A stretch of DNA of 64,000 nucleotides from an uncultured bacterium (GTDB taxonomy: Bacteria > RBG-13-66-14): NCBI GenBank assembly GCA_964577465.1, contig CAZNZF010000004.1, positions 834 to 64,833 of the forward strand, in the 5' to 3' direction. The translations under genes were made by a program, and so were the position numbers. The notes under the pieces are model-generated. The model saw nothing but the letters and a program-made list of their open reading frames with translations. It searched no databases and was not told the DNA's origin. How positions within the stretch are numbered: position 1 is the stretch's first letter; each line of letters opens with the position of its first letter. Shown here one piece after another: positions 1,533 through 64,000 of the stretch.

Positions 1533-1551
1533 ATTCGTGGGCGAGGGGCTT
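1533..1551. repeat. Palindromic element family A copy (AGGGGCTTAAGCCCCT), downstream of a minus-strand gene, next to a second hairpin GGGGAGGTAGCTCCCC (~1500-1517)
   Basis: Perfect palindrome related to CAAGGGGTTTAAACCCCTTG copies elsewhere in the window. Terminator-like position. Confidence 0.6.
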
Positions 1552-1561
1552 AAGCCCCTTG

Positions 1562-2119
1562 TCATCCGCTCAACGCCTTCAGTTTTCCCCAGGAGAGGCG
1601 GACGGTCCCGGCGTCGCCCGTCAGTTTGACCCAGACCTCGCGCCGGTCCAGCTCCTTCCACACCGAGCCCGACGGTCCCTCGCAGGCACCGACGACGAAG
1701 ACCAGCCGTACGTCGCCTCCCCGACCGTTCGGCGTGATGAAGAGTTCGGCGTGGTACGCGCCGCGACCGACGAGGGCCCGGTCGGTGACGAAGCCCGACC
1801 AGCGAAAACCCTCCGGCGCGGGGTCGTTGAACTCCAGCCAGGCGGACGAGCTCCGGCCGGGCTCGAGCCGCCCCGCGGCGTACCCGCCGTACCCTTCGGC
1901 TTCGACCGACCAATCGTCCGGTGTCAGGACGCCGAGAAAGCCGCAGGCCGTTTGGTCGGAGTCGGCCATCACGTGGAGCGTAACGGGGAAGCGCTCGCCG
2001 GGCGCAATCCGCGGCGGCGCCTCCACGGAGGTGAAGTCCAAGCAGCCCGTCGCCAGAATCCCGGCCAGCAGCGCGCAAACCGAGCGTAGCGAGCTACGCC
2101 CCTGGCGAAATGCCTTCAT
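1562..2119 (-). CDS. Secreted lipoprotein (..LLAGILATGC lipobox-like), paralog of 763..1317. C-terminal ..SWGKLKALSG
   Basis: ORF 1562..2416 trimmed to ATG at 2119 with a GGAGG RBS upstream. Shared internal motif with the neighbouring gene. The first ~11 codons are encoded by a copy of repeat family B. Confidence 0.55.
   Translation of the reverse strand: MKAFRQGRSSLRSVCALLAGILATGCLDFTSVEAPPRIAPGERFPVTLHVMADSDQTACGFLGVLTPDDWSVEAEGYGGYAAGRLEPGRSSSAWLEFNDPAPEGFRWSGFVTDRALVGRGAYHAELFITPNGRGGDVRLVFVVGACEGPSGSVWKELDRREVWVKLTGDAGTVRLSWGKLKALSG
2078..2112 (-). repeat. Repeat family B copy (ATTTCGCCAGGGGCGTAGCTCGCTACGCTCGGTTT on the minus strand) embedded in the 5' end of the lipoprotein CDS
   Basis: Matches copies at 9648, 27781, 28998, 29086, 29824, 51448 and 63940. 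Read in frame as ..KAFRQGRSSLRSV.. (the N-region of the signal peptide). Confidence 0.7.
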
Positions 2120-8850: not shown

Positions 8851-9594
8851 TTAAGTTAGGAAGAGCCAGTAGTTCAGGGTGACCATGCCGATGCCTAAGA
8901 GGGCCCCGGCCACTATCTCTCTCCAGGTGTGCACGCCGCGGCGGATGCGGGCGTCGGAGATGATGAGCGCCAGGAGGAACACGAGCACCGACACCAGCGG
9001 GTTCTCGGTCACCAGGGTGACGATGGCGAAGACGGCGAAGCTGACCGCGGAGTGGCCCGAGGGCATCCCCCCGTGGAGCGGCGTCCCGCGCCCGAGGAGC
9101 ACCTTGCCCAGGATGACCAGCACTATCACCAGGGTGAAGCTGATGAGGGTGACGTACTCGGGGCTGCCCTTCACGGCGCGGATGGCGGAGAAGATGTGGG
9201 GCTTCAGGTCCTTGAACAGAACCAGATAGCCGACGATGACCGCCGTGATGGCCGCGATGAAGACCGCCCCCGCCGAGATGTCCTTCACCAGTTTGGCCAG
9301 GGGGTGGTAGGTGGTGGTCATCAGGTCCAGCGCCTTCTCCAGCGCCGTGTTGATGAGCTCCGTCACCAGGACGAAGGCCACCGCCAGGATGACCAGGACG
9401 AGGTCGCTGCGGTCGATGTTTAAAAACAGCGACCCGGCGATGACCAGGACGCCGACGAGGAAGTGGATGCGGATGTTGCGCTCGGTCTTGAGGGTGTAGA
9501 TTATCCCCTCGAGGGCGTTGTTGAGGGACTGGGACATCCGGGGCTTCGTCCCGATGGTGCTCCGGCGCCGTTTCTGTTTTTCCTCGGGCATCAA
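8851..9594 (-). CDS. dgkA: Diacylglycerol/undecaprenol kinase (DgkA) fused to a PAP2 phosphatase domain
   Basis: N-terminal ..LNNALEGIIYTLKTERNIRIHF.. matches prokaryotic DgkA. C-terminal PSGH ... SDARIRRGVHTWREI matches PAP2 motifs. Start may be M1 or M20. Confidence 0.65.
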   Translation of the reverse strand: MMPEEKQKRRRSTIGTKPRMSQSLNNALEGIIYTLKTERNIRIHFLVGVLVIAGSLFLNIDRSDLVLVILAVAFVLVTELINTALEKALDLMTTTYHPLAKLVKDISAGAVFIAAITAVIVGYLVLFKDLKPHIFSAIRAVKGSPEYVTLISFTLVIVLVILGKVLLGRGTPLHGGMPSGHSAVSFAVFAIVTLVTENPLVSVLVFLLALIISDARIRRGVHTWREIVAGALLGIGMVTLNYWLFLT

Positions 9595-9684
9595 TCGCTA
9601 CGCTTCGTTTACGGTTGCGCCGTCGCAGGTATGCCGGGGCATTACCCGGTTTGCCGGGGGCATAGCTCGCTTCGCTTCGTTTCC
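9594..9684 (+). repeat. Repeat family B copy (full copy ~9648-9684: GGTTTGCCGGGGGCATAGCTCGCTTCGCTTCGTTTCC) plus partial fragments and one family-C-like unit (ACGGTTGCGCCGTCGCAGGTATGCC)
   Basis: Intergenic, between the ybeY stop and the dgkA start. Sequence identity to other copies. Confidence 0.65.
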
Positions 9685-9695
9685 GTCGACGATCC

Positions 9696-15984: not shown

Positions 15985-16004
15985 CAAGGGGTTTAACCCC
16001 CTTG
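15985..16004. repeat. Palindrome family A copy (CAAGGGGTTTAACCCCCTTG)
   Basis: Between the propeller gene stop (16012) and the cytochrome b start (15967). Confidence 0.65.
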
Positions 16005-26930: not shown

Positions 26931-27314
26931 TTAGGGTGTACTTCCGGGACCCGGAGCCAGCAGCTTCTCGATGCGCTTGACCACGTCGAGGGGGTTGAAC
27001 GGCTTGGTCACGTGCAGCGCGATGCCGATCTCCCGGCTGATTCTCTTGTAGAGCGGTCCCGAGTGACCCGTGATTATGGCGACGGGGGTCGACGACAGAA
27101 GCTCGTCGGCCATCAGGTCGTGGTACAGCTTGTAGCCGTCCAGGCCCGGCATAAGGAGGTCCAGGATGATGACGTCGGGCCGTTCCCGCATCGCCGCGGA
27201 GAGGACGGTGGCGGGATCGGAGAGGGAGATGGTTTCATGCCCCCGGCTCTTGAAGGCGAGTCCCAGCGTCTCGACGATGTGCCGTTCGTCGTCCACGATC
27301 ATGATTCGGGCCAT
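26931..27314 (-). CDS. Stand-alone response-regulator receiver (CheY-like)
   Basis: MIVDDERHIVETL.. with an acceptor Asp in ..VIILDLLMPGLDG.. and ..TKPF... Confidence 0.8.
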   Translation of the reverse strand: MARIMIVDDERHIVETLGLAFKSRGHETISLSDPATVLSAAMRERPDVIILDLLMPGLDGYKLYHDLMADELLSSTPVAIITGHSGPLYKRISREIGIALHVTKPFNPLDVVKRIEKLLAPGPGSTP

Positions 27315-27334
27315 TTAGGATGCCTCCCGGCACA

Positions 27335-27757
27335 TCATCGAACGCCCGTGCCCGCCTCGCGGTTCACGGCCGGCTCGTCGGCGGACCCCGGCGCTCGTCC
27401 GAGCAGGCGCTCCACCTGCTCGACCACCGCGTACGGCTTGAAGGGCTTGGTCAGATGCAGCCCGGCGCCTAACCCATCGCTGATGCGCCGGTAGATTTCG
27501 TCGGGCTTCGCGGTGAGCAGGACCACCGGAATCCGCGACACCCGTTCCTCCTCGCCCAGACGGTTGAGCACCTCGTAGCCGTCCATACCGGGCATCATGA
27601 GGTCGAGGATGATGGCGTCGGGTCTTTCCCGGTCGGCGAGGGGGACGCACAGCGTCGCGTCGGACACGCCCACGACCTGGTAGCCCCGTTTCTCGAAGGC
27701 CAGGGAGAGTGTCTCGACGATGTGCCGCTCGTCGTCCACTATCATTATCTTCGGCAT
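27335..27757 (-). CDS. Stand-alone response-regulator receiver (CheY-like), tandem paralog
   Basis: N-terminus identical to the neighbour over MIVDDERHIVETL. ..AIILDLMMPGMDG.. and ..TKPF... Confidence 0.8.
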   Translation of the reverse strand: MPKIMIVDDERHIVETLSLAFEKRGYQVVGVSDATLCVPLADRERPDAIILDLMMPGMDGYEVLNRLGEEERVSRIPVVLLTAKPDEIYRRISDGLGAGLHLTKPFKPYAVVEQVERLLGRAPGSADEPAVNREAGTGVR

Positions 27758-27780
27758 GGATCCCGCCCCGCCCCTTTCTT

Positions 27781-27831
27781 TTTACCGGGGCATTACTCGC
27801 TTCGTTTGGTTTTCAAGGGGTCTCAAGCCCC
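27781..27831 (+). repeat. Repeat family B copy (TTTACCGGGGCATTACTCGCTTCGTTTGG, missing one CTTCG unit) followed by a degenerate family A half-palindrome (CAAGGGGTCTCAAGCCCC)
   Basis: Intergenic, upstream of the REC gene at 27757. Confidence 0.6.
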
Positions 27832-27985
27832 CCGGTTCCCGGCCCTCCGCCGTGTAGCTGATTTAATTCCCACCACGCAAGTGTATAATACACCGCCGCC
27901 CGTTCCCGCGCAACCCCTCAGACGCGGCGACTTCCGATTTTACACCTCTTCAATCCCCGCGGCCGCGGCCGTTCCGAGGCCGCGA

Positions 27986-28960
27986 TTACCCCGGGTAGTC
28001 GCCCTTCCGGTCCGCGGCCCCGCCCTCCGTAGTTCCCCGTCGCTCGTGGACCACTATGTTTCCGGGTTTGCCCTTGCCGAACTTCTTCAGCTCGGTGACG
28101 ACGTCGGCAATCTCGGCGGTGGTGGTGAAGCGCCGCTTCTCGCTCGACACCAGCTCGATGGTCAGGGTGAGCGTGGCGGGATACCGGCGCAGGCAGCCGG
28201 TGCGGTCCTTTATCTCGTAGTAATCCCGCCTCAGGTCGGCCTCGTCGAAGTAGTCCTTCACGCCCTCGCCGAAGAGCTCGATGACCCGGTCCGCCAGCTT
28301 CTCGGCCTCCTGGTGGTAGCAGAGCATCATGAAGTCGTCCCCGCCGATGTGCCCGACGAAGTCCTTCGGCTTGCCCAGCGCCCGGTTGGTCTGGACGAGG
28401 CAGTGCGTGAGAAGACGGATGACGGAATCGCCGCGGGCGTAGCCGTAGTAGTCGTTGAAGCTCTTGAAGCGGTCGATGTCGGCGTAGAAGAGGGAGTAGG
28501 GTTTGCCGGAGCGGATGACTTCCTTGAGCCGATGCTCGATCTCCAGGTTTCCCGGCAGGCCCGTCAGCGGGTTGCAGCCGAGTTGGTAGCGCGTGCGCGA
28601 CAGGACCATCTTCGCCCGGGCCAGGAGCTCCCGCTGGGAGAAGGGCTTGGCGATGTAGTCGTCGATGGAGTGCTCGACGCCCCGCTCGAGGTCGATGATG
28701 TCCTGCTTGGCCGTCAACAGAATCACCGGGATGTGGGCGGTCTCGAAGTCCTTCTTCAGCTCGGAGCACACCTGATAGCCGTCCATCCCCGGCATCATCA
28801 CGTCCAGGACGACGAGCTCCGGGTTGAAGACCTTGACCTGCTCCAGGGCCTCCTCGCCCGAAGGGCAGGTCAGGACCGTGTAGTTGTCGCCCTCGAATAC
28901 GGTCTTGACGATCGAGCGGATGTCGGGGTCATCGTCAACGACCATCACCCGTGTCGACAT
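27986..28960 (-). CDS. Response regulator with GGDEF domain (PleD-like; GGDDF variant motif)
   Basis: REC domain (VMVVDDDPDI.., ..VVLDVMMPGMDG..) followed by a GGDEF domain with ..HIGGDDFMML... Confidence 0.8.
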   Translation of the reverse strand: MSTRVMVVDDDPDIRSIVKTVFEGDNYTVLTCPSGEEALEQVKVFNPELVVLDVMMPGMDGYQVCSELKKDFETAHIPVILLTAKQDIIDLERGVEHSIDDYIAKPFSQRELLARAKMVLSRTRYQLGCNPLTGLPGNLEIEHRLKEVIRSGKPYSLFYADIDRFKSFNDYYGYARGDSVIRLLTHCLVQTNRALGKPKDFVGHIGGDDFMMLCYHQEAEKLADRVIELFGEGVKDYFDEADLRRDYYEIKDRTGCLRRYPATLTLTIELVSSEKRRFTTTAEIADVVTELKKFGKGKPGNIVVHERRGTTEGGAADRKGDYPG

Positions 28961-28997: not shown

Positions 28998-29030
28998 ATT
29001 TGCCAGGGGCATAGCTCGCTACGCTCGGTT
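28998..29030 (+). repeat. Repeat family B copy (ATTTGCCAGGGGCATAGCTCGCTACGCTCGGTT)
   Basis: Intergenic, between nadD and the REC-GGDEF gene. Confidence 0.7.
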
Positions 29031-29085
29031 CACCGGGGCGTCACTATCGCGCGAATCAGGGGGCCATTATAAAACTCCCCCCCCC

Positions 29086-29120
29086 GTTTTGCCAAGGCAC
29101 TACTCGCTTCGCTTCGTTTT
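29086..29120 (+). repeat. Repeat family B copy (GTTTTGCCAAGGCACTACTCGCTTCGCTTCGTTTT)
   Basis: Directly abuts the nadD stop at 29122. Preceded by a GGGGG...CCCCCCCCC hairpin (~29059-29084). Confidence 0.7.
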
Positions 29121-29121: not shown

Positions 29122-29715
29122 TCAGCCATCGCGGTACAGACCATTGTCAACGATGTAGCGGGCCACCGGGTCGGGGACGAGCCACCGCAGGCTGAGCCCC
29201 GCCGCGGCTCTTTGGCGCACCAGCGTCGAGGACACGCCGAAGGGGGGCATGGGGATTGCCGACGCCCGGGTCCCGGGGGGGATCTTTTCGGGCGTAATTA
29301 CACTCCCGGGTCTCGGTGCGTAGGCGAAGCGGGCGAGCCGGACCAGCTCGTCCACCCGGTGCCAGGCGCCCAGGTCGTTCAGGTTGTCGGCGCCCACGAG
29401 GATGACCGGCTCCCCGCCGAGGAGCTCCCGGAAGCGCAGGACCGTGTCTATGGTGTAGGATACGCCGCCCCGCCGGAGCTCGATGTCGTCCGGGACGAAG
29501 GCCGGTTCACCCTCGAGCGCCAGCCGGAGCATGGCGAGACGGTGGGGTTCGGCGGCTTTCGGGGGGTGGTCGCGGTGGGGTCCCCGGGCGGCGGGGATGA
29601 AGTACACCCGGTCCAGGTCTAGTTTCTCGCGGGCGAAGGTCGCCAGGAGCAGGTGGCCCAGGTGCACCGGGTCGTAGCTGCCGCCGAAGAGGGCGTACTT
29701 CCCTGGTGTGTCCAT
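29122..29715 (-). CDS. nadD: Nicotinate-nucleotide adenylyltransferase
   Basis: GGSYDPVHLGHL (H/T-x-G-H nucleotidyltransferase motif). 197 aa. Confidence 0.85.
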   Translation of the reverse strand: MDTPGKYALFGGSYDPVHLGHLLLATFAREKLDLDRVYFIPAARGPHRDHPPKAAEPHRLAMLRLALEGEPAFVPDDIELRRGGVSYTIDTVLRFRELLGGEPVILVGADNLNDLGAWHRVDELVRLARFAYAPRPGSVITPEKIPPGTRASAIPMPPFGVSSTLVRQRAAAGLSLRWLVPDPVARYIVDNGLYRDG

Positions 29716-29823: not shown

Positions 29824-29872
29824 CAAGGGGTTTTGCCAAGGGCATAGCTCGCTACGCTCGGTTAACCCCTTG
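29824..29872 (+). repeat. Composite: family A palindrome arms (CAAGGGGTT / TTAACCCCTTG) flanking a family B core (TTGCCAAGGGCATAGCTCGCTACGCTCGG)
   Basis: Same composite structure occurs in inverted orientation at 51448..51497. Confidence 0.7.
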
Positions 29873-29918
29873 TCTTAATCTGGGTGGTGAACGGGGGAAG
29901 CGGCGAAGGTAAAAAAAC

Positions 29919-29945
29919 CGGCCGAGACCGGTTTATACGATTCGT
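29919..29945 (-). terminator. Rho-independent terminator downstream of bamD
   Basis: Minus strand reads CCGGTCTCGGCCGG followed by TTTTTTT. Confidence 0.65.
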
Positions 29946-35983: not shown

Positions 35984-36616
35984 TTAGAAAAAGCGGCCGA
36001 GGAGATACCACCAGGCGCCGGTGGCGAACATGACGAGGTTTACCAACAGCAGCGCCCCGCCCACGATGTGGCAGACCCGCCACAGTTTCCAGCGCTTCTC
36101 GACGATGAGCACCTTGGCGGCGCAGAGCGCCAGCCCGACGAAGCCGATGACCGTGTGCAGCACCACGCGGTCCGTGTTGCCGCGGACGCCGTGGGCTACG
36201 AGGCAGATGCCGGTCAACAGGACGTAGAGCCCCAGGGTCGTCCAGCCGAAGACGCGGTGCCTGCGACGCAGCTTCGCGCCACGCTCCGGGTCCCGCTTGG
36301 CCGCCGGGCGGGAGGTGTAGATGAGGATGTACGCGGTGAGCGCCGCCAGGAGCGTCAGCACGGTCAGGCTGCTCTTGAGGAGCCACAGCGGCGAGGCGGT
36401 CACCGGAGGCTGCGGGATGTCGTGCCCCGCCTCGACCCACCCCGCGAGGCTGTGGCCGTGGGCCGCGTAGTACAGCCCGCGCTCGTTGCGCTCCCCGCCG
36501 CCCTGGGGGTTGAGGTGGCAGTAAACGCAGTCTCTGCGCTCCCGGTCCGCGTACTCCGGCCGGGCCCAGGCGCATAAAACGAAAATGAAAAGTAGAAGAA
36601 CGGCGGTCTTTTTCAT
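35984..36616 (-). CDS. Membrane mono-heme c-type cytochrome (signal peptide + CVYCH, then 4 TM helices)
   Basis: One CxxCH motif after the signal peptide, followed by hydrophobic helices. The start overlaps the stop of the giant gene by 4 nt. Confidence 0.55.
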   Translation of the reverse strand: MKKTAVLLLFIFVLCAWARPEYADRERRDCVYCHLNPQGGGERNERGLYYAAHGHSLAGWVEAGHDIPQPPVTASPLWLLKSSLTVLTLLAALTAYILIYTSRPAAKRDPERGAKLRRRHRVFGWTTLGLYVLLTGICLVAHGVRGNTDRVVLHTVIGFVGLALCAAKVLIVEKRWKLWRVCHIVGGALLLVNLVMFATGAWWYLLGRFF

Positions 36617-39600
36617 GGCGCCCTGCGGGTGAAAACGCCGAAGCCGCCCCAGTACGCCGGGCTCGGGAAACTGGCCCGGGTCGAGAGCTGGGCCAGCCGG
36701 AGCGCCTCGGCGGGCGGGAGGCCGTCGGCGAGGCCCAGGAAGAGGTTGCGGACGGTGATGGCGGTGGCGATGTCCGAGGTGCGCCAGAATGTGGCGGCCA
36801 CGGCGTCCGCCCCGGCGATGAGGAAGGCCCGCGCCAGGGACAAGAATTCCAGGCCGTCGGCCCCCTCGGGCACCGCCGTCTCGCAGGCCGAGAGGACCGC
36901 CAGCTCGCAGTCCAGCGGCAGGGCGAGAATGTCCCGCACGGTCAGGAGGCCGTCGTCGCCCGTTCCCTCGTCCGGCGTCAGGAGCAGGGCGGAGGAGAGC
37001 GGGTCGCCCGGGGCGAGCCGGGTGTGGGTGGCCAGGTGCAGCCGACGGGCACGGCCTGCCAGCTCGGTGTAACGGCTCTTCAGGGCGGCCCGGCCGGTGA
37101 ACGGTGCGGGCCCTCCGGGGAACAGGCCGGCGATGCTCTCCGCCTCCTTCTCGGCGAAGGGGAGGTCGTCCCGGGGATTTCCCGTGGTCGGGTTGGCGAA
37201 GCTGACCAGCGGCAGCTCGCCGTATGCGTCGTTCACGGGCGTGAGCCAGGCGGTGAAGCTCGGGGCGTAGGCCAGGGGGAAGCGGTCAAGCAGGCAGCCG
37301 TCACCGAAGGGCAGGACGGCGAAGGGCACGTAGGCCAGCTCGCCATCGGGGATAATCAACAGCTCGTCCGGGTCCGCCGCGGATAGCTCGTCGGCCCAGG
37401 GTCCGATGACCTCGGCGGCCAGGGCGGCGGCGAGCGCGTCGAAGCGGTCCGGGTCGCCCCGGGAGGTGAAGAGGGTGGTCAGCTCCCGGACGGCGTTCCG
37501 GGCGGCCTGGGCCGGCCTCTCGACGACCCTCACCCCGTCTCCGTCCACCAGCCAGCTCCAGAGGCGGTCGCCGTCCATGTGATAGACGAGGGCTGCGCGG
37601 CGGTCGCCGACGCCCCGGATGATTTCCTCCGCCGTCGCCGTTTTGCCGACGACCCCGGCGAAGGCGGGCCACCGCTCGGCTATCTCATCCACGAGCGCGT
37701 CCTCTTCCGCCAGCGCCCCGTCCAGCCCCGCGTCGCTCTCCGCCCCGAGGAGGAGGGAAATCCGCCGGGACAGCTCGGTGTACCGGGTCAGGGCCTGCCC
37801 GAGCTCCGCGTCCCGCCAGGGGATGTCCGCCGACAACAGGGTCCGCTCGCCGACGACGGAGCGGCAGATTTCCTCCAGCTCCAGGCTGCGGCGAAAATCC
37901 CCGGATTCGAGGGCGAGCCCGATGCCGTGGGTGAAGAGCTGCTTGGCCCCGACGAAGATGCCCTGAAGAGCAGCGGAGAGGGGCGACTCGGGCGCGGCCT
38001 GCCGGACGGTTTCCAGGGCCAGGTCGAACTCGGCCAGCGCGGTCGGCCGGTCCCCGCTATTTTCGGCCAGCCGGCTCAACTGGTGGTGGACCCGCCAGAG
38101 GAGGTCCGGCCGGTCGGCGGCGACCGCCCCCCTCCGGGCCCGGTCAAGGCAGTCGGCCGCCTTCGCCGGGTCGTCGGGGAGGACGAGGCGGGCCACGTCG
38201 CAGTAGCCCAGAATCGTCCGCGGGTTCGTCAGGTCCGCGTCCGCCAGGTAGCGCTCGTGGAAGGTTCTCGCCTCGGCGGTATTCCCCTCCAGCTCGGCCA
38301 CGGCGGCCAGGTGCCGCAGGTCGTTCGACACCCCCTGGGAGTAGCCGATCCGCCGGTCCTCGGCGAGCGCCTCCTCGAAGTGGACGCGGGCGATTCCCAG
38401 GCGGCCGCTCGAGCGGTACACGAGCCCCAGGTTGGAGTGGGCGGCGGCGGTTTCCTGGGCGTCGCCGGAGGCCTCGGCCTTCTCCAGGGCGGCCGTCGCC
38501 GCGGCGAGCGCCTCGTCGGTCCGGCGCATCCCCAGCAGCGACAGCGCCTCGCTGCCCAGGAAACGGGCGATGAGGCCGGGCGGCCCGTTCTCCCCCAGCT
38601 CCGCGAGGACCTTTTGGCTTATCTCCAGGGATTGGTTGAAGGACCGGTCCTTCCAGTACGCCTTGGCCAGGCCGAAGAGGTTGTCCAGGCGCGCCGCGGG
38701 GGTGTCGGGCTCGCCGGGGTACTTCTCCGCCTTGGCCAGGCCTTCCGTGTGGTACGCCCGGGCGGCGGGGAGGTCGCCCTTCTCCGTGGCGATGAAGCCC
38801 AGGAGCGCCAGGGCCCTCGCCTCACCCACCGGGTCGCCCAGGGAGACGAAGGTCAGTCGGCTGAGCTCGGCGTAACCCCCGGCCCGTTCCTGGTCGTCCA
38901 GGTTGGCCTGGTAGAGGTTTCCCAGCTCGAGCGTTACCTGGGCCCGCGTAGCCTCGCGCTCCGCCCCCACTGCCAGGTCGGCGGCCAGGTTGTACTCGAC
39001 CGCCGCCTCCTCGAAGCGGTAGGCGCGCACCAGCAGACGGGCGCGGTCGAGGTGGCCGGAGATGTAGGGGTCGACGAGGGCGGCGACCTCGGGTCCGCCC
39101 AGTTCCCCCAGGGTATCCAGGTAATGGCCGTTGGCCTCCAGCCCCGCGTCCAGGTCGCCCGTCTCGGCCTCCAGGGCGCTCAGGCGCCGATAGGCCTTGG
39201 CGCGGGAGACCGGGTCGCGGGCGGCCTCGAGGAGCTTCACCTGGTACTCCAGCGCCAGCTTCAGCTTCCCGGAATCGTGCGCAGCGCTGACGGCGGCCCC
39301 CCAGAGCTGCAGCTTCTTCTCGTCGTCCCCCAGCCGCTCCGCCATCCCCGCGGCCTTGAGGAACTGGTACAGGGCGGTCTCGAAATCCCCCTCCCCCTGG
39401 TAGGCCAGGGCCGAGCGGACCGTGTTCGAGAACTGCTCCTCGGCGAAGGTGCGCGCCTCGACGTCGGAAAATCCGGCGAACCCCAGGAGTATCGCCCCGG
39501 CCCAGTCCATCGTGGACGGGTACTTCTCCCGCACCTCGAGCTGGGCCCGGCGCACCGCCTCGGCCGGAGGCTCGCTCAACCGCCAGCGCGCGAAGGCTTC

Positions 39601-42600
39601 CGCGAAGAGGTTCCGCGCGCCGTCGGCGGCGGTGTTGGGGGAGGTGCAACCTACGAAGATGAGGCTCGGCACCCCGGCGTAGGTGAAGCACCGGGTCAGG
39701 ACGGCCAGGCCGTTGCCGAGGCCGGGCCCCAGCTCGATACGGTTCCCGGTGTCGTTGAGGCTCACGACGTTGATGTCGAGGGTGTTGCCCAACAGGGCGT
39801 TGAAGTTCAACAGCCCCTGGTCGCGGCGGGCGAGGCGGCCGGTCTGTGCCTCGGAGAGCCGGAAACCGAAGGAGAGCGGGTCTCCGCCCGAGAACTCCAG
39901 GGGCACCGTCATGTCCAGGTGGCCCTTCGAGGTGATGGTTTCCACCAGCTCCGACTCGGTGACGTCGGCGGGGGCCATGTCGCCGGAAACCTCCGCGCTT
40001 CTCTCCTGCGCGGCCCGGCGGTCCGCATCCGGAACGCCGACGCGGCCGACGAAGAACATCGGTTTCGAGTAGCTCGCGTTCCGGGCGTCGTAGCAGTATG
40101 TCAGCTCGGAGAAGGAGGCCACGACCGCCACCGGGGTGGTCTCCACCAGGGGCCGGCCGTCACCCGCGGGGAGGGCGGGCCAGGGTACGCGCCAGAGCAC
40201 GCCGTCCGGCGCGACGTAAACGGTTCTGGCGCCGCTCAACTCCCCCGCGTACGGGGAGAGGAGGAGGTGTCCCAATTCGGCGAGGGCGCCCGAGTCCCCG
40301 GCGTCCGCCCGGTCCACCAGCTCCCGGGCCGCCGCGCGGCTGAGCCCGATTCTCGCCTGCCGCACGCCGCCGGAATCCAGGAGCCAGGCGTAGAGGGCGT
40401 CGCCGGCGAAGAAGTACGTCAGCAGAATCTCGCCCCCGCGCAGCACCTCCGCGGCATCCTCGAGCCCGGTGGGATACACTCCCACCAGGGCGGTCAGGAT
40501 GCGTTTCCGGCCGTGCTGCTCCTCGACTATCTCGCGGTAGTGAAGCCGCTCGTCCACCAGTTGCTTTCGCAGCGTCTCCAGCCCCCCGGCCACCGCGGGG
40601 TCCGCGGAGAGGCTTTGGGCGGAGATTCGGTCGCTCAACTCCGATATCCGTTCCTGGGTGAAGAGCTCGTCGCCCAGGAACAGCTTGTCCATCTCGCTGG
40701 CCAGCTCGAGCTCCCGGTCGGCGAATATGCTCGCCATGTACGCCTGCTGCTCACGGTCCACCAGTCGGAGCGCGTCCTCGGCGGCCCCGGCGTCGGCCGA
40801 CAGGACGATCATCTTCTCGTACAGGTCGCGGATCTCGGCGAAGGTCACCGAGAGGGGCACGGTTTGGGTTTTCTGGCCGATTTCGCGCTCCACCGTTTCC
40901 AGGGCCTGTTCCAGGTAAACCTTGGCCCGGCCGGGCTCCCCGCGTGAGAGGTAGAGCTCGGCCAGTGAGCGGCTCGCCCGCCAGGACAGCCGGTCCAGGG
41001 CGAAGAGGTTCGCCCGGTCCCGCGCCCGCTGCAGGAGGTTCTCCGCCTCGGCGAAGCCTAGCTGCACCAGCGCCACCCCCCGGTTGTGCTCGCAGGCCAC
41101 TGCGCCGGCGGCGTCCCCCAGCGTTTCGTAGGTGGTCTGGGCGGTGAAGAAGGCGGCCTCGGCCTTTCGTATGCGCTCGTACCGCTCGACGGAGGTTTCG
41201 TTCTCGCCCACGAGGTACAGGCGGAGGAGCCCGCGGGCGTTGGCGATGCGCGCCCCGAGCTTCGGGTCCGCCACGCTGTAGAGTTTGGGGGCGTACTCCT
41301 CGAGCGCGCCCTGGACCTCGGCGGCGATGCCGTGGAGGTCGGTCGTCCCCTCGTCCGTCCCCCAATCGGGGAACAGCTCCTCGACGGGCGTCCCCTCCGT
41401 GCGCACCCGGTCGGCGATGTTCATGGCGATTTCCGCCAGGTTGGAGAGCGCCACGAGCGCGCCCCGGTACGCGCCGCCCGCCAGGCACGCCTGCATGGAG
41501 GCGAGGTAGTTCTTCGCCGCCTCGGCCAGGTCGCCCAGCTTGTACGACAGGTAACCGATGCGGTTGTAGATTCTCCCCCTCTCGGCGGAGACCACCTCCT
41601 CGTTCTTCTCGCCGGAGGTTTCCTCGAAGAGGGCCAGGCGCTCCTCGTAGCAGGAGATGGACGCGCGGTAATCGCCCCGACGGGAGTGGCACTTGGCCGC
41701 GAAGGTGTAGATGAGCTCCTTCTCGCCGGCGAGGTCGAACCCCCGGGCCGCCTCCGAAGTGTCGCCCACCAGCCCCGCGCTGAAGGAGAAATCCAGCAGG
41801 CCGCTCGAGGCGGTCGAGTAGCGGGCCCGACCGAGCTGGTCCAGGACGTCGAGCGCCTGCTGGAAATAATCGAGGGCGTCGGCGTAGAGCTGGAGGAAGT
41901 AGTAGCAGACGCCGATGTTTCTCAGGGCGTAGGAGCGCTTGGCTCGGGCGGCCAGGGCCGTCTCGGCGGCGCGGGTACGGTCGCCCAGGTCCGGCAGGTC
42001 CGCGGCGGCGGCCTCCTCCCGCCGGGCCACCCGGTCGTACAGGTCGGCGGATTGGATGAAGCAGTTCAGCGCCTTGTCGTAGGCCTCCTGCTCGAAGTAG
42101 ACCAGCGCCTGGCCGTCGGTGCACATGAGGACGCCCACGTCGTTGCCCATTTCGGCGAAGATGTCCCGGGCGGCCCCGTAGTGTCGGACGGCCTCGGGGT
42201 AGTTCTCGGTGTGGCGGGCGCAGCGGCCGGCGTTGAAGTGGTAGCGGGCTTCCACCTCCGCCTCGCCGGGCCCGGTCATCAACTCCTCGCGCCTCGCGTA
42301 GTGCTCGTAGGCCGGGCCGAAGTTGTACAACAGGTAGCTGGCGTTGCCGAGGGCCAGCTCGATGTCGGCCTCGAAGGCCGGGTACTCCGTCTCGTCGTTC
42401 TGGGCGCGGGCGAGGCTCAGGTAATCCAGCGCTTTTTCCAGATAATCGCCGGCCTCCCGCTCGTTGTCGTTTTCCCTCTCCCGCATGGCGCGCTCGAGAT
42501 CGATCCAGCCCAGGGTGAACCAGGCGGCCGGAAAGACGAAGCGGAGGCCCACCGCCCGGTTGAGCTCGGCCTCCGCCTCGGTCAGCTCGACGTAGTTGAC

Positions 42601-44919
42601 CCCGCTCCCCGGCCCGGTGGAGGGGTAGGTCAGGGCCAATCCGAGGGCGTAGCGGGCGATGGGGTCGTCGGGGTCGTCCCGGAGGCGGTCCCGGTACTCC
42701 CGCACGATGTCGTCCCGCTTGCCCATGTCCTCGCAGTAGAGCTTGACCAGTGCGTGGTGGCCCCGGTCGTTGGAGTAATCGAAGTCCATGGCGCGGCGGA
42801 TGAGCGCCTCGGCGCGCTGGAGGTCGTTGCGCCGGCGATAGCCGTCCGCCTCCTCCAACAGGAGGCGGCGCAGGGTCTGGGAGGCGCGGATGGACTCCAA
42901 CCCCCCCGAAAGCTCGCCGTAGGAGCCCACGATGCGCTCCAGGGCCGTCGCGGCCTCCTCGGGGTGTCCGAGGTCCTTTTCCACGTCGGCTATCTTGAAC
43001 AGGACGCTCACACCGAGGAAGCTCGCCCGCGGGTAAGCCGTCAGCACCTCGCGGTAGGCTACCAGGGCCTCCTCCTCCTGACCCATCCGCCGGAGTTCGT
43101 CGCCGATTTGACCCTGGGCGTAACCGGCCAGCTCTGGGTAGTCGGCAAAATCGCGGGTCATCTCCTCCAGGGCCACGATCCGCTCCACGTCCCGCAGGCT
43201 GCCCACGGTGAGGCTGACCAGGTCGCGCTGGGTCAGGTTCTGCCACCTCTTCTCGGCGGGGTAGTTCGTGAGGATGTAGAGGTAGCGGTCCCGGGCCTCG
43301 CCGTGGCGTCCGAGCCGCTCCAGGGAGCGGGCCGCCTTGAAGTCCGCCTCGGCGCGCAGGCTGAAATCGGAGCCCAGACGCGCGGCCGCGTCGTAGCTTT
43401 CCAGCGCCTCCTGGACCCGGCCCACCCGGTACAGGACGTCCCCGGCCAGGACGAGGCTGCCGCAGGCGACCTCGGGGACGTACTCCACGGTCTCCGCCGC
43501 CAGGTCCCGCGCGCGGGCCAGGATGTCGGGGGTCGCCTCCTCCACCGTCCGGCCCTCGTCCACGTACCGGTACGCCGCGGGGAGTTGGTCGAAGTAGATG
43601 GCCCCGAGCCACTCCTGCTGGAGCTTGGACAGCACGCTGGCCGCCCCGGCGGTTATGCCCCCCGGCCAGCGGCCGGCTACACCCGCGCGTTCGAGACCGG
43701 CCTGCCGGCTCCAGCCGAGGTTCTCCATGTCGGAGGCGAGCTCGAGCTGCGCCCGGGCGGCCAGGTCCTCCTGGCGGTAAAAGGCGTCCACGAAAAGGGT
43801 GAAGGCCAGCAGCCGGGCGGTGGGGTCCTCGACGACCCCCCGCGCCAGACGCAGGGCGGTGGAGGGATTTTCCGGCAGCTCGGGGGGGGCGAGCGGCATG
43901 CTCCAGATGTCGCCGTTAAAGGAGCGGTCGGAGCTGAAATAGACGAGGGTGCCGTCGGTGTCGGCGAACCCGTCCCAGTCGGCGCCCGCAGTGAGGCGGC
44001 GGTAGGCCGCCTGACCGGGTTTAAGGCGGTCGGCCGCGGCTGCTCCGGGCGTCGAACCCTCCAGAATGCGCTCCAGCGCCTCCGCTTCCAGAAAGCAGAG
44101 CTGGGCGTTGTCCCGGGTGTCAATGACGCCGTCGGAGTTGGTGTCCAGGGCGAAACGGGTGAAGAGGAGGCCCTCCGGTCTCCAGCGCGGCCGGACCATG
44201 ACCCCCGCCTCGGATACCAGGGGCCGGCGAAGGCCGTCCGAGAGCCGCCGGGCCTCCAGGGTGCTGCCGCCCATTCCGGGGACGACGTAGCACAGCCAGG
44301 ACCCGTCGGGGGAGAGGGTCGGGTTGGCGCCGCCCGCCTCGGTGATGCGCTGGAGCCCCTCTCCCGTCCGCTCCACTCGGAAGACGTTGGACAGGTTCGG
44401 GGGCGGTTCCCATTCCGCGTCCACCGCCCCGGGAGGCGGCCGATAGTCGGCGGGCTCCGACCGGGTGAAGTAGATGTAGTTCTCGTCGGGCGTGGGTATG
44501 GGGGTCTCGTCGCGGCCCAGGTGGGTCGTCAGCCGCGTGGCGAAGCCCAGCTCGATGCTGTAGCAGTAAATCTCGCCCTCGGGGTCGTCACGGGTGCTGG
44601 TGAAGTAGATTTTCGTCCCGTCGGGCGACCAGACCGGGTTGTAGTCGTCGGCGGTGTTGGTCGTGAGCTGGGTCTGCTCGCGGCTCTCCAGGTCCATGAG
44701 CCAGATGTCCGAGTTCCCGCTCGCGTCGGACACGAAGGCCAGCCGGTTGTCCCGGCGGTCGACCGCCGGGGAGGACTCGAAAGAAATGCGGGTGGTGATT
44801 TGGACCGACTCGGGCAGGGGGAACGTCTCCAGCCCCTCCCCCTCTGGGGCGTCGGCTCCGACGGCCGGCGCGAGGAGGACCGGGAGAAACGCGCAGATGA
44901 ACGGGTAAAGACGCGGCAT
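36613..44919 (-). CDS. Giant secreted multidomain protein: TolB-like propeller + TPR arrays + degenerate CHAT + TPR arrays + C-terminal CHAT (caspase-like) domain
   Basis: 2768 aa, single open frame. Signal peptide MPRLYPFICAFLPVLLAPAVG. N-terminal SPDG...IYF repeats. C-terminal ..LHLATHT.. and ..LAVLSACETA.. His/Cys dyad. The internal CHAT-like region has no Cys at the catalytic position (..VVSLNDTGN..). Confidence 0.75.
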   Translation of the reverse strand: MPRLYPFICAFLPVLLAPAVGADAPEGEGLETFPLPESVQITTRISFESSPAVDRRDNRLAFVSDASGNSDIWLMDLESREQTQLTTNTADDYNPVWSPDGTKIYFTSTRDDPEGEIYCYSIELGFATRLTTHLGRDETPIPTPDENYIYFTRSEPADYRPPPGAVDAEWEPPPNLSNVFRVERTGEGLQRITEAGGANPTLSPDGSWLCYVVPGMGGSTLEARRLSDGLRRPLVSEAGVMVRPRWRPEGLLFTRFALDTNSDGVIDTRDNAQLCFLEAEALERILEGSTPGAAAADRLKPGQAAYRRLTAGADWDGFADTDGTLVYFSSDRSFNGDIWSMPLAPPELPENPSTALRLARGVVEDPTARLLAFTLFVDAFYRQEDLAARAQLELASDMENLGWSRQAGLERAGVAGRWPGGITAGAASVLSKLQQEWLGAIYFDQLPAAYRYVDEGRTVEEATPDILARARDLAAETVEYVPEVACGSLVLAGDVLYRVGRVQEALESYDAAARLGSDFSLRAEADFKAARSLERLGRHGEARDRYLYILTNYPAEKRWQNLTQRDLVSLTVGSLRDVERIVALEEMTRDFADYPELAGYAQGQIGDELRRMGQEEEALVAYREVLTAYPRASFLGVSVLFKIADVEKDLGHPEEAATALERIVGSYGELSGGLESIRASQTLRRLLLEEADGYRRRNDLQRAEALIRRAMDFDYSNDRGHHALVKLYCEDMGKRDDIVREYRDRLRDDPDDPIARYALGLALTYPSTGPGSGVNYVELTEAEAELNRAVGLRFVFPAAWFTLGWIDLERAMRERENDNEREAGDYLEKALDYLSLARAQNDETEYPAFEADIELALGNASYLLYNFGPAYEHYARREELMTGPGEAEVEARYHFNAGRCARHTENYPEAVRHYGAARDIFAEMGNDVGVLMCTDGQALVYFEQEAYDKALNCFIQSADLYDRVARREEAAAADLPDLGDRTRAAETALAARAKRSYALRNIGVCYYFLQLYADALDYFQQALDVLDQLGRARYSTASSGLLDFSFSAGLVGDTSEAARGFDLAGEKELIYTFAAKCHSRRGDYRASISCYEERLALFEETSGEKNEEVVSAERGRIYNRIGYLSYKLGDLAEAAKNYLASMQACLAGGAYRGALVALSNLAEIAMNIADRVRTEGTPVEELFPDWGTDEGTTDLHGIAAEVQGALEEYAPKLYSVADPKLGARIANARGLLRLYLVGENETSVERYERIRKAEAAFFTAQTTYETLGDAAGAVACEHNRGVALVQLGFAEAENLLQRARDRANLFALDRLSWRASRSLAELYLSRGEPGRAKVYLEQALETVEREIGQKTQTVPLSVTFAEIRDLYEKMIVLSADAGAAEDALRLVDREQQAYMASIFADRELELASEMDKLFLGDELFTQERISELSDRISAQSLSADPAVAGGLETLRKQLVDERLHYREIVEEQHGRKRILTALVGVYPTGLEDAAEVLRGGEILLTYFFAGDALYAWLLDSGGVRQARIGLSRAAARELVDRADAGDSGALAELGHLLLSPYAGELSGARTVYVAPDGVLWRVPWPALPAGDGRPLVETTPVAVVASFSELTYCYDARNASYSKPMFFVGRVGVPDADRRAAQERSAEVSGDMAPADVTESELVETITSKGHLDMTVPLEFSGGDPLSFGFRLSEAQTGRLARRDQGLLNFNALLGNTLDINVVSLNDTGNRIELGPGLGNGLAVLTRCFTYAGVPSLIFVGCTSPNTAADGARNLFAEAFARWRLSEPPAEAVRRAQLEVREKYPSTMDWAGAILLGFAGFSDVEARTFAEEQFSNTVRSALAYQGEGDFETALYQFLKAAGMAERLGDDEKKLQLWGAAVSAAHDSGKLKLALEYQVKLLEAARDPVSRAKAYRRLSALEAETGDLDAGLEANGHYLDTLGELGGPEVAALVDPYISGHLDRARLLVRAYRFEEAAVEYNLAADLAVGAEREATRAQVTLELGNLYQANLDDQERAGGYAELSRLTFVSLGDPVGEARALALLGFIATEKGDLPAARAYHTEGLAKAEKYPGEPDTPAARLDNLFGLAKAYWKDRSFNQSLEISQKVLAELGENGPPGLIARFLGSEALSLLGMRRTDEALAAATAALEKAEASGDAQETAAAHSNLGLVYRSSGRLGIARVHFEEALAEDRRIGYSQGVSNDLRHLAAVAELEGNTAEARTFHERYLADADLTNPRTILGYCDVARLVLPDDPAKAADCLDRARRGAVAADRPDLLWRVHHQLSRLAENSGDRPTALAEFDLALETVRQAAPESPLSAALQGIFVGAKQLFTHGIGLALESGDFRRSLELEEICRSVVGERTLLSADIPWRDAELGQALTRYTELSRRISLLLGAESDAGLDGALAEEDALVDEIAERWPAFAGVVGKTATAEEIIRGVGDRRAALVYHMDGDRLWSWLVDGDGVRVVERPAQAARNAVRELTTLFTSRGDPDRFDALAAALAAEVIGPWADELSAADPDELLIIPDGELAYVPFAVLPFGDGCLLDRFPLAYAPSFTAWLTPVNDAYGELPLVSFANPTTGNPRDDLPFAEKEAESIAGLFPGGPAPFTGRAALKSRYTELAGRARRLHLATHTRLAPGDPLSSALLLTPDEGTGDDGLLTVRDILALPLDCELAVLSACETAVPEGADGLEFLSLARAFLIAGADAVAATFWRTSDIATAITVRNLFLGLADGLPPAEALRLAQLSTRASFPSPAYWGGFGVFTRRAP

Positions 44920-45795: not shown

Positions 45796-45833
45796 CGGCC
45801 GGTCCCGTTCAATGGCGGTTATCGCAGTGTCGG

Positions 45834-45867
45834 GCAAGGGGTAAGGCAAGGGGTTTAAACCCCTTGT
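45834..45867. repeat. Palindrome family A copy with a duplicated left arm (GGGCAAGGGGTAAGGCAAGGGGTTTAAACCCCTTG)
   Basis: Intergenic, after the OMP gene. Confidence 0.65.
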
Positions 45868-45939
45868 TCCGCGCCTTGTCTCCATTGATTCTTGACCAAA
45901 GGGGTCGTCCTTTATATCATGGGGGCCGTGAGGACGGCG

Positions 45940-51447: not shown

Positions 51448-51497
51448 CAAAGGGGTTAACCGGGCGTAGCGAGCTATGCCCTTGGCAAAACCCCCTG
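51448..51497 (-). repeat. Composite family A arms + family B core, inverted orientation relative to the 29824 copy
   Basis: CAAAGGGGTTAACCGGGCGTAGCGAGCTATGCCCTTGGCAAAACCCCCTG. Confidence 0.7.
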
Positions 51498-53486: not shown

Positions 53487-53931
53487 CGTGGGCCGTCCGC
53501 CGTCCGCCGGCGTCATCCGTCTGCGCCCCCATCACCTCTTGTGCCTTGTGGCCTTTCAGGGTGAGGGGTACTCGCCGGAATTCATCGAGAAGGCTCTGGG
53601 GCTCCAGCGTGCCCTCCTGGCCGACGACGCGGTAGTCGAGCTGGTCCGCGGTCCGGACGACCTGTGCGACGGCTGCCCGGAGATGAGCCGGGAGTGCGTT
53701 TCCCTCGCTCCGGATTCGGGCGTGGAAAAGCTCGACCGCGCCGCCTCCGCCCTTCTGGGTGTTACACCAGGGCGCCGCCGGGCGGCGGAACTGCTCCTGT
53801 CCATGAGGAAAACCTTCACCCCCGAGCGCGGGTACAAGGTCTGCGCCGGTTGTTCCTGGCTGCCCCGGATGGACTGCCCGCGGGTCATCGCAATCCGGCT
53901 GAAGGAGCTTTTCCCGAAACAAGGGGCTTGA
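53487..53931 (+). CDS. DUF1284-family Cys-rich protein
   Basis: ..IRLRPHHLLCLVAFQGEGYSPEFI.. matches the DUF1284 N-terminal signature. Conserved Cys pairs (CDGC, CAGC). Only a GTG start is available, 2 nt after the rng stop. Confidence 0.5.
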
Positions 53932-53939
53932 GCCCCTTG
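53920..53939. repeat. Palindrome family A copy (CAAGGGGCTTGAGCCCCTTG) overlapping the stop codon of the DUF1284 gene
   Basis: The last codons ..K Q G A * are encoded by the left arm and loop of the palindrome. Confidence 0.65.
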
Positions 53940-60637: not shown

Positions 60638-60659
60638 GCAAGGGGTTTAAACCCCTTGT
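60638..60659. repeat. Palindrome family A copy (GGCAAGGGGTTTAAACCCCTTG)
   Basis: Starts 6 nt after the recJ stop. Confidence 0.65.
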
Positions 60660-62913: not shown

Positions 62914-64000
62914 GTGACCGATTACCGGCCCACCATCGCCTTCGAGGTCCACCTGCAGCTCGACACCGCGTCGAAGGCCTACTGCGGCTGCGCCGTCGTC
63001 TTCGGCGCCGCGCCCAACACGGTCGTCTGCCCGGTGTGCACGGGGCAGCCCGGGGCGCTCCCCGTCCCCAACCGCGGCGTCTTCGAGAGGGCCGTCCGCG
63101 TCGCCCTGGCCCTGGGCTGCGAAATAGCGGAAAAAACCCACTTCGACCGGAAGAACTACTTCTACCCCGACCTGCCCAAGGGCTACCAAATCAGCCAGCA
63201 CCCGGTGCCCGTGGGCCGCGTTGGTGAGTTTCGCTTCCCCGCGGAGCGCTACGGCGAGGCGGCCGACGCGGTCGTCAAAATCAGCCGGGTGCACGTGGAG
63301 GAGGACACCGCCAAGGCGGTCCACGACGCAAAGGGCGACACCCTCATCGACTTCAACCGCGCCGGGGTGCCGCTCATGGAAATCGTCACCGAGCCCTGCA
63401 TCCCAAATCCAGACGTAGCCTACGCCTACCTCACCGCGTTGAAGGAGACCCTGGAGTACCTGGACGTCTCCTCGTGCAGCATGGAGGAGGGCTCGCTGCG
63501 GGTGGACACCAACATCTCCGTGGCCCCGGCGGATTCAATAAAGCTGGGGACCAAGGTGGAGGTGAAGAACCTGAACTCGTTCAAGGCGGTCAAGGCGGCG
63601 CTGGAGTACGAGTTCGAGCGCCAGACGGGGATTCTGGCCTCGGGGGGGAAGGTGGTTCAGGAGACGCGGCACTGGGACGACCGCGAGGGCGCGACCCTGC
63701 CCGGCCGGGTGAAGGAGGAGGCGATGGACTACCGCTACTTCCCCGAGCCGGACATCCCGCCGTTGGCGATTCCCCGGGAGTGGGTGGAGGAGATTCGGCA
63801 AAAACTGCCGGAGCTGCCGCAACAGGCCCGCGAGCGTCTGCACGCCGCCGGTCTTTCGGGCTACGACGCCTGGGTGCTGGTGGCGGAGCGGGACCGGCTG
63901 CGCTACTACGAGGCGGTCGTCGCGGCCGGCGCCCCCGCGAAACGAAGCGAAGCGAGTAATGCCCTGGCAAAACCGGCCGCCAACTGGGTCAACGGCGACC
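62914..64000 (+). CDS. gatB: Asp-tRNA(Asn)/Glu-tRNA(Gln) amidotransferase subunit B (3' end outside window)
   Basis: GTG start, then ..TIAFEVHLQLDTASKAYCGC...GALPVPN...NYFYPDLPKGYQISQ... Open to the window end, so not listed in the ORF track. Confidence 0.85.
   Translation, partial: MTDYRPTIAFEVHLQLDTASKAYCGCAVVFGAAPNTVVCPVCTGQPGALPVPNRGVFERAVRVALALGCEIAEKTHFDRKNYFYPDLPKGYQISQHPVPVGRVGEFRFPAERYGEAADAVVKISRVHVEEDTAKAVHDAKGDTLIDFNRAGVPLMEIVTEPCIPNPDVAYAYLTALKETLEYLDVSSCSMEEGSLRVDTNISVAPADSIKLGTKVEVKNLNSFKAVKAALEYEFERQTGILASGGKVVQETRHWDDREGATLPGRVKEEAMDYRYFPEPDIPPLAIPREWVEEIRQKLPELPQQARERLHAAGLSGYDAWVLVAERDRLRYYEAVVAAGAPAKRSEASNALAKPAANWVNGD
63940..63972 (-). repeat. Repeat family B copy inserted in frame within gatB
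   Basis: AAACGAAGCGAAGCGAGTAATGCCCTGGCAAAA is 33 nt and is read as KRSEASNALAK, between ..GAPA and PAANWVNG... Confidence 0.7.

Follow-up and report, generated by a model that had tools for sequence, protein, structure and literature searches.

Nested hairpin-forming repeats of two families, A and B, in a genome of the Coatesbacteria lineage

Results

We analysed a 64-kb stretch of DNA (66.8% GC; hereafter the window) from an uncultured bacterium of the Coatesbacteria lineage, in which a short palindrome, family A, is split at two places by a second hairpin-forming repeat, the 30-nt unit B. The first of these composites (coordinates in Table 1) has the BamD terminator on one side and the promoter region of the next gene (- strand) on the other, and the second separates the stop codon of gene 49643-51430 from that gene's terminator hairpin. 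The first copy (29824-29872, +) reads CAAGGGGTT-TTGCCAAGGGCATAGCTCGCTACGCTCGG-TTAACCCCTTG. The second, at 51448-51497, is its reverse complement over 49-50 nt with three small differences, namely a substitution in B (CGCCCGG), a substitution in one arm (CAGGGGGTT) and an extra T in the other arm (AACCCCTTTG). A preliminary description of the window had reported B nested inside A here in opposite orientations, and both copies were found as it said; since A is essentially symmetric, however, the orientation of B can be defined only relative to the chromosome and not to A. The idea that the flanks of A are asymmetric (GGCAAGGGG...CCCCTTGTCTC), which would imply inversion of the whole composite, was withdrawn because in the larger sample described below each flank type is found on either side.

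The palindrome, the B core and the gapped A-B-A pattern each had a mean count of 0.00 in dinucleotide shuffles, and the 29824 composite forms a single extended hairpin on folding (z -2.9 to -4.3). Both copies share the private variants GCCAAGGGCAT and GGTTAACCCC. The B copies of the window that lack A arms have neither GCCAAGGGCAT nor the one-base-shorter right junction seen in both composites. We infer that the copies at 29824 and 51448 are sisters of one A(B)1 lineage, where A(B)n denotes n B units between two A arms.

For comparison we used ~1 Mb of related DNA from Candidatus Coatesbacteria bacterium RBG_13_66_14 (RBG_13) and from metagenomes, with loci labelled L001 onward. A B-core scan of one genome per species gave 23 matched stretches, of which 17 belonged to RBG_13 and 2 to another uncultured metagenome-assembled genome, and the same scan of metagenomes matched at least 120 stretches. 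RBG_13 contigs L001, L002 and L005 are syntenic with the window at 84-93% identity. Among the metagenome loci, L063 is syntenic with window positions 1-10841, and L127 is 99.8% identical to 51230-54237. No B was found in viral contigs; a lone exact A palindrome among them, at L153:1733-1752 (IMGVR_UViG_3300032118_002670), is probably incidental. The window's own 595-aa protein had no record in the protein collection.

Family A is a perfect palindrome of 20-30 nt, with (GGAGA)CAAGGGGTTT as its left and AAACCCCTTG(TCTCC) as its right half, intergenic and scattered; its longest form is the 30-nt perfect palindrome of GGAGACAAGGGGTTT and AAACCCCTTGTCTCC. An empty A is exactly arm plus arm with no spacer, and the same arms (CAAGGGGTTT/AAACCCCTTG), which reach 15 nt each, stand on either side of B arrays. 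The centre also occurs as CTTAAG, CTTGAG, TTTGAA and ATTCAT. None of the A copies carries a GTAG head; they begin (GGA)GACAAGGGG or GGCAAGGGG. Among the four empty palindromes named in the preliminary description, those at 15985 (one mismatch) and 60638 (exact, starting at 60639) were recovered, the one at 53920 turned out to be a centre variant, and position 45834 holds merely a partial extra left arm (GCAAGGGGTAAG, 45834-45846) in front of the palindrome proper at 45847, with a degenerate outer right arm downstream. The whole stretch 45832-45882, GGGCAAGGGGTAAG-GCAAGGGGTTTAAACCCCTTG-TTCCGCGCCTTGTCTCC, resembles an A inside the remains of another A, and arm duplications of this kind were also seen at L004:2689 and L099:150-180.

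B is an imperfect palindrome, TTYGCCRGRGGCRTAGCTCG-CTWCGCTCG-G, with TT at both boundaries, and it folds alone. A 9-nt sub-repeat (NNNNGCTCG) lies within it, and besides full units there are truncated ones of 21 nt and additional pieces of 9 nt (CGCTCGGTT). GTAG occurs within B inside the stem only, and in the CTACGC variant only. Between A arms, zero to ~5 B units are arranged head to tail as direct tandem repeats. The 46 arm-less single B copies are conserved as G-W-T-T-Y/GCC...CGGTT/Y-G-C, and the flanks of a single B thus resemble the junction between two B units.

The nesting of B in A is real and systematic. Among 181 flank-unique B arrays of the ~1 Mb set, 66 have both A arms and 18 one recognised arm, most of the latter being parsing failures; about 84 (~46%) therefore stand at the centre of an A. 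A further 16, with 4 partial cases, lie in a GTAG-headed palindrome, a few in a third host family (CCCTCTCCCCGTGGGAG...CTCACGGGG...GGGTGAGGG), and 77 have no arms. The preliminary description had allowed that the nesting could be coincidental, and the frequency of A arms in this B-selected sample shows that it is not. Before removal of duplicate flanks, 195 arrays contained one head (149), two (29), three (14) or four (3). Parsing from arm to arm gave 78 flank-unique composites with one B unit in 45 and two to ~5 in the rest, a single composite having five.

The second host family is a GTAG-headed palindrome resembling repetitive extragenic palindromic (REP) sequences, GTAGGGCGGGGA-loop-TCCCCGCC, with at least 64 empty copies in the sample. 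Its loop variants that carry B begin with TT (TTAAAA, TTCCTA), and B stands directly after that TT. Where an empty form is available for comparison, the position of B is GGGGTTT^AAACCCC in A, and GGGGATT^AAAATCCCC or GGGGATT^CCTATCCCC in the GTAG palindrome. The proposal that B inserts at the TTTAAA centre of A was borne out in part, B being an independent unit of insertion found immediately behind a TT on the 5' side of the loop; a clean pair of empty A and A+B was not among the orthologous sites. The number of independent entries of B into palindromes may be small, and is at least four.

Several further repeats touch on these hosts. Canonical members of the REP-like family, (A/G)TGTAGGGCGGGGA-6 nt-TCCCCGCCG, are found for example at L004:4461-4482, L021:7149-7170 and L064:12956-12975, and none occurs in the 64-kb window. 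At 56836-56949 a third repeat family (AACCCCTCACCC..GCCCGTAGGCGAGCCTCCCC..GGGAGGG) is represented in the window by two 57-nt copies in tandem; L031:3507, L042:4782 and L124 hold what appears by eye to be the same family with a B unit at its centre. Other palindromes (GTAGGGGCGACCCGTAG..., GTAGGGGCGGGGCTCTGTCCCCGCC) lie inside A-armed B arrays at L059:8379-8618 and L144:5360-5500, giving three levels of nesting.

In order to compare orthologous sites, filled/empty pairs were taken from a flank-anchored all-against-all comparison. Six B pairs differed by ~30 nt per unit (28-32), as listed in Table 1, and array length itself differed between orthologous sites, for example with four units in L060 and one in L006. 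Hence B is inserted or deleted in ~30-nt steps independently of A. A is likewise gained or lost as a unit: empty copies of 24-30 nt are present or absent at window 1541 versus L063, at L063:3684 versus L005, and at L002:362 and L063:6573 versus the window.

These findings bear on the reading that mobility belongs primarily to the composite, or to a larger element, and that empty A copies are footprints remaining after excision of the centre. Bertels and Rainey described long palindromes formed by excision of REPIN centres (PMC3337134), an empty A is arm plus arm with nothing between, and array length does vary at orthologous sites, all of which would fit. However, empty A copies are present or absent whole where no relative has the filled form, removal of B leaves the four centre variants unexplained, and no orthologous pair of filled site and footprint was found. 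We regard this reading as quite improbable, and the earlier suggestion that empty palindromes are solo pairs of terminal inverted repeats of a composite falls short, as these palindromes come and go as units of their own.

Whole A(B)n composites were present or absent at six orthologous sites, one of them judged by lengths only, with no intermediates. For the 29824 copy the BamD neighbourhoods of four relatives were compared, L145 being the closest with 90% BamD identity. In RBG_13 (L144) the corresponding spacer holds an empty A-like palindrome, displaced by ~13 nt where the alignment is diverged. Internal layouts also recur: 30+21+30+9 nt was found at different loci in L001, L004 and L005, with the same layout one base longer in L098, and 21+30+9 at L002 and L016. 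Composites are therefore present or absent as units, and their layouts are repeated across loci. The idea that A arms are the terminal inverted repeats of a composite thus gained support from the six sites and the recurring odd layouts, and it falls short in that B is found apart from A as well, both in coding sequence and within palindromes of other families.

An alternative is that B is purely a guest with a strong preference for palindrome centres, which entered each A copy separately, so that composites were never copied as units. In its favour, B is independently mobile, in three host palindromes unrelated to one another it occupies an equivalent place, following TT on the 5' side of the loop, and the spacer that holds A(B)1 in the window has an empty A-like palindrome in RBG_13. 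Against separate entry stand the idiosyncratic layouts, with truncated units in the same order at several loci, the private variants of the window composites, which are absent from its arm-less B copies, and the outcome of the orthologous comparisons, in which the composite was whole or missing in 6 of 6 with no intermediate. This alternative seems unlikely to us.

B was also found inside genes. Among the 77 arm-less arrays, 29 lie in open reading frames (ORFs) supported by third-position GC content (GC3), always in stop-free frames, which yield EPSEASYAPGK, TERSELCPRQ, NRAKRAMPLAK, CQGHSSLRSV or ARGIARYARF. Aligned with 1gm5_A, the RecG of L022 has exactly 10 extra residues (PEPSEASYAS), and the YmdB of L013 shows a 12-residue gap at the B site against 4b2o_A. 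Further hosts resemble ParB, LigA and a sulfatase by sequence motifs only. An RsmG-like host gave a weak match to solved homologues, the alignment beginning just past the B peptide. Independent insertion or deletion of B thus extends to in-frame positions in genes.

The A-armed arrays, in contrast to B, were intergenic in 83 of 85 cases, and their strand relative to co-directional genes showed no bias (18:17), which argues against a strand-specific RNA role. A strand preference of B seen in the window, where the reverse complement of B is on the sense strand in 8 of 9 copies, is not general, the ratio being 18:17 for A-armed arrays and 20:9 in ORFs; the latter skew may come from avoidance of stop codons. 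No T-run follows A or the composites, and separate terminators consisting of a hairpin and a T-run are located at ~29905-29932 and ~51504-51533, so that neither A nor the composites have the form of an intrinsic terminator, a GC-rich hairpin directly followed by a T-run.

It was also considered whether the hairpins are selected by the host as terminators, mRNA stabilisers or protein-binding sites that are tuned by B arrays. The almost exclusive location of A and the composites in spacers, often right after stop codons, and the stable composite hairpin would agree with such a role, and REP, BIME (bacterial interspersed mosaic element) and BOX elements have been reported to affect transcript stability and expression (PMC3049150). 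Yet orientation is unbiased relative to flanking genes, T-runs are missing while canonical terminators adjoin both window composites, close relatives lack the elements in the same spacers, B is found in coding sequences as well, and there are no Rfam matches. Selection as a functional signal is therefore highly improbable in our judgement.

Other candidates were rejected. No Rfam family at the gathering threshold and no tRNA (ARAGORN) was found in the window, which leaves no known RNA or tRNA origin. For a promoter or a sigma-54 site, no -35/-10 or -24/-12 spacing fitted B by eye, no scan having been run. An integron attC site was dismissed by inspection, as the order of its core sites, RYYYAAC...GTTRRRY, is reversed relative to these repeats.

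Table 1. Repeat copies in the window and orthologous sites with and without them.
Feature	Location	Strand	Remarks
Composite A(B)1	29824..29872	+	left arm CAAGGGGTT(T) 29824-29833; 30-nt B ~29832-29863; right arm AACCCCTTG 29864-29872; nhmmer E 1.3e-11
Composite A(B)1	51448..51497	-	opposite chromosomal orientation; nhmmer E 1.3e-08
Empty A, exact CAAGGGGTTTAAACCCCTTG	45847..45866		pattern search
Empty A, exact CAAGGGGTTTAAACCCCTTG	60639..60658		6 nt past stop codon of gene 58203-60632
Empty A, one mismatch (TTTAAC; CAAGGGGTTTAACCCCCTTG)	15985..16004		between two - strand genes
A centre variant (CTTGAG) CAAGGGGCTTGAGCCCCTTG	53920..53939		TGA stop of ORF 53488-53931 at centre
A centre variant (CTTAAG) GAGGGGCTTAAGCCCCTTG	~1541..1560		abuts stop codon of - strand lipoprotein gene; absent at L063 orthologous site
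Arm-less B, strong	2078..2109	-	E 6e-11; within 5' end of - strand gene
Arm-less B, strong	9650..9681	+	E 2.6e-09; spacer between - strand genes 9696-10310 and 8851-9594
Arm-less B, strong	28999..29030	+	E 1.9e-12; 5' leader of response-regulator/GGDEF gene 27986-28960 (-)
Degenerate B	9578..9609	+	overlaps start codon region of - strand gene 8851-9594
Degenerate B	27780..27811	+	upstream of response-regulator gene 27335-27757 (-); flanks CCCCTT...AAGGGG
Degenerate B	29083..29114	+	directly past stop codon of gene 29122-29715 (-)
Degenerate B	63941..63971	-	in frame in gatB (62851 to window end), read ...PAKRSEASNALAKPAANW...
B filled/empty pair	L059:7040 vs L135 / L030		61 vs 31 nt
B filled/empty pair	L109:5572 vs L018 / L054		60 vs 30 nt
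B filled/empty pair	L040:841 vs L121		61 vs 31 nt
B filled/empty pair	L072:1246 vs L077		60 vs 30 nt
B filled/empty pair	L107:504 (two units) vs L095		90 vs 30 nt
B filled/empty pair	L018:1189 (two units) vs L054 / L109		92 vs 28/30 nt
Composite present/absent	window 51448 vs RBG_13 L001		no arms, no B in L001; present in L127
Composite present/absent	RBG_13 L002:6414		absent from window and L063
Composite present/absent	L119 vs L129
Composite present/absent	L048 vs L138
Composite present/absent	L095 vs L053		unrelated sequence at empty locus
Composite present/absent	window 29824 vs L145, L146, L148		none in these three

Seven B copies of the window have no A arms, three of them strong (2078, 9650, 28999) and four degenerate (9578, 27780, 29083, 63941). 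The copy at 2078-2109 contributes FRQGRSSLRSV to the n-region of what by inspection is a lipoprotein-like signal peptide (MKAFRQGRSSLRSVCALLAGILATGC), and the insertion is shared by the orthologues in L002 and L063. The gene holding the copy at 63941 was identified as GatB by alignment with the PDB; the window ends 30 nt past B, which is too little sequence for the alignment to prove that this copy adds 10 residues. Between genes 29122-29715 and 27986-28960, the B copies at 28999 and 29083 are both in L145 and both missing in L146, where the spacer is 68 nt; the copy at 29083-29114 is also present in L148. Every spacer around the response-regulator genes at 26931-28960 has B copies and differs between relatives, which makes this a local hot spot. 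The region itself (-) is made up of three neighbouring response-regulator genes whose receiver domains are paralogous; one of these genes is fused to GGDEF in the orthologues.

At the site of the 53920 variant, RBG_13 (L001) has a complete A(B)3 between remnants of the variant palindrome. The left arm of this variant encodes the final residues (..QGA*) of ORF 53488-53931, and the RBG_13 orthologue ends at a TAA made by the junction of arm and B. Elsewhere in the window, 36613-44919 (-) is a single ORF of 2768 residues with coding-type GC3 (0.92).

The only Y1_Tnp gene found by tblastn within the ~1 Mb sample is in L047 (Pfam PF01797, RayT family), on a contig that bears B. The RayT gene (924-1415) is bracketed within L047:862-1615 by direct copies of a ~75-nt module with the hairpin AACGGACTCTTTAGTCCGTT, and a B unit (1495-1526) is inserted in one downstream module copy.

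Discussion

Taken together, these results suggest that the nested repeats of the window are probably modular composites of two small mobile hairpin-forming repeat families, A and B, in a genome of the Coatesbacteria lineage. By default we read the repeats as selfish DNA that is tolerated in spacers and surface loops. Going by the titles and abstracts of the literature that mentions Coatesbacteria, none of which appears to concern repeats, repeat families do not appear to have been described before for this uncultured phylum.

A composite could arise when a B unit lands in the single-strand-prone centre of an A copy. If the A arms carry what copying needs, the composite would then multiply as a unit. 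Array length would drift afterwards, either by slippage on the GCTCG sub-repeats or by arrival of a new B at the ...CGGTT end of an existing unit, an end that would mimic the preferred target G-W-T-T^Y-G-C. An HUH/Y1 enzyme of the RAYT (REP-associated tyrosine transposase) or IS200/IS605-like kind may mobilise the repeats in trans, in the form of single-stranded hairpins. With low confidence, we favour such a single-strand route over a DDE-type miniature inverted-repeat transposable element (MITE), because of the tiny size and hairpin form of the repeats, the failure to find a reproducible target-site duplication, a junction after G-W-T-T that is specific in orientation, the insertion at palindrome centres, the head-to-tail arrays at the target-mimicking ...CGGTT end, and the co-resident GTAG-type REPs.

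Several points weigh against this interpretation. No clean orthologous pair of empty A and A+B was found, the nearest being window 53920 versus L001 and window 29824 versus L144. Insertion is not polarised against precise deletion, since this needs a robust tree and palindromes are prone to deletion. The preliminary description had called for a search for target-site duplications; B does have TT at both boundaries, and for A or the composite none was consistent in the filled/empty alignments, which are too diverged to define one. For B, a duplication of TT is indistinguishable from a 30-nt insert without duplication, and two empty B sites have AT or GT in place of the TT of the filled sites. 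The L047 RayT was rejected as the mobiliser of A and B: it has its own, different REP hairpin (AACGGACTCTTTAGTCCGTT), and its nearest homologues are in genomes of 53% GC without A or B. As regards the sample, the ~1 Mb set was chosen by canonical B and mixes several related genomes, so that all proportions drawn from it are biased and some orthologous sites may be counted twice. The coding calls come from an in-house GC3-based ORF caller, save where PDB homologues were aligned.

A further and rather doubtful possibility is that B represents a previously unrecognised minimal class of mobile DNA, a lone 30-nt hairpin that is copied by itself, whose targets mimic its own unit junction and which seeds 10-residue insertions across a candidate phylum. 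On this possibility, targeting of the junction mimic G-W-T-T^Y-G-C would account both for the head-to-tail arrays and for landing in single-stranded palindrome centres. With a length of exactly ten codons and four or five open frames, B would seed 10-residue insertions in housekeeping-type proteins. Insertions of this type were shown for RecG and YmdB, and in-frame B peptides occur in GatB-, ParB-, LigA- and RsmG-like ORFs.

The probable modular composite of A and B is of wider use in several respects. Its natural series of zero, one and two or more units, together with the filled and empty sites, bears on how very small palindromic repeats (REP, BIME, BOX) are copied. B joins intergenic mosaic repeats and coding insertions like those of the Rickettsia palindromic element (RPE), which are usually treated separately. 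In practical terms, the repeats will fragment metagenome assemblies of this lineage and displace its ORF calls, and they can be used as variable-number markers for strain typing.

Comparison with known systems

The closest analogues are BOX, the REP/BIME/REPIN group and the RPE of Rickettsia, the likeness to BOX being an analogy of architecture only. BOX elements are built as boxA-boxB(n)-boxC in pneumococcus and S. suis, and the boxB of S. suis can be enclosed by either of two kinds of terminal module (Croucher et al. 2011, PMC3049150). As in BOX, mutually complementary terminal modules enclose a variable number, including zero, of tandem internal modules in A(B)n, and the internal module folds alone, so that copy number can change while the overall hairpin is kept. 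Length varies from strain to strain at a locus, and the elements can create or extend ORFs. The presence of boxB in two kinds of termini in S. suis is similar to that of B in A, in the GTAG palindrome and in the third family. BoxA, boxB and boxC are roughly 59, 45 and 50 nt long, whereas the modules described here are far smaller, with arms of 10-15 nt and a unit of 30 nt, and belong to GC-rich DNA of an unrelated phylum. In addition, the arms form a spacer-less perfect palindrome when empty, B moves alone into coding sequence, which is not described for boxB, and no consistent target-site duplication was found for the composites.

With REP, BIME and REPIN sequences and their RAYT transposases (Bertels and Rainey 2011; PMC3116915, PMC3337134), the repeats have in common that they are short, GC-rich extragenic palindromes of high copy number with mosaic clusters and nesting. 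Hairpin-forming inverted pairs have been proposed there as the copied unit, with long perfect palindromes as by-products. A and the GTAG family have the form of REPs, short, high-copy and extragenic palindromes, and B has it in part, 29 of its 77 arm-less arrays being in ORFs; the co-resident GTAGGGCGGGGA-loop-TCCCCGCC family carries the classical GTAG head. In contrast, A is without this head, B arrays are direct tandems instead of inverted doublets, and B is frequent in genes. The ~1 Mb yielded no RAYT gene with A or B at its flanks, and the one RayT seen has a different hairpin.

The RPE is a palindromic repeat that is inserted in frame in unrelated housekeeping genes, where it adds a conserved peptide and leaves the ORF intact (PMC10969869). 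B behaves in the same way in RecG and YmdB and, by motifs only, in ParB-, RsmG-, LigA- and GatB-like ORFs, a likeness that does not apply to the A-armed composites. Compared with the ~100-150 bp of the RPE, B has 30 nt (10 residues) and is readable in four or five frames; unlike the RPE, it nests in other repeats and forms tandem arrays, and phylum and sequence are unrelated.

MITEs such as Correia/CREE, RUP and Nezha are similar in being non-autonomous and mostly intergenic, with inverted termini, strong secondary structure, presence/absence polymorphism and nested insertions. A and B differ from them in that no reproducible target-site duplication was found, they are GC-rich and not AT-rich, and B alone is under the usual size range of MITEs. 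Collectively, the A/B system is set apart from the known families by its tiny modules, the spacer-less empty palindrome, the independent life of its internal module and the phylum in which it is found.

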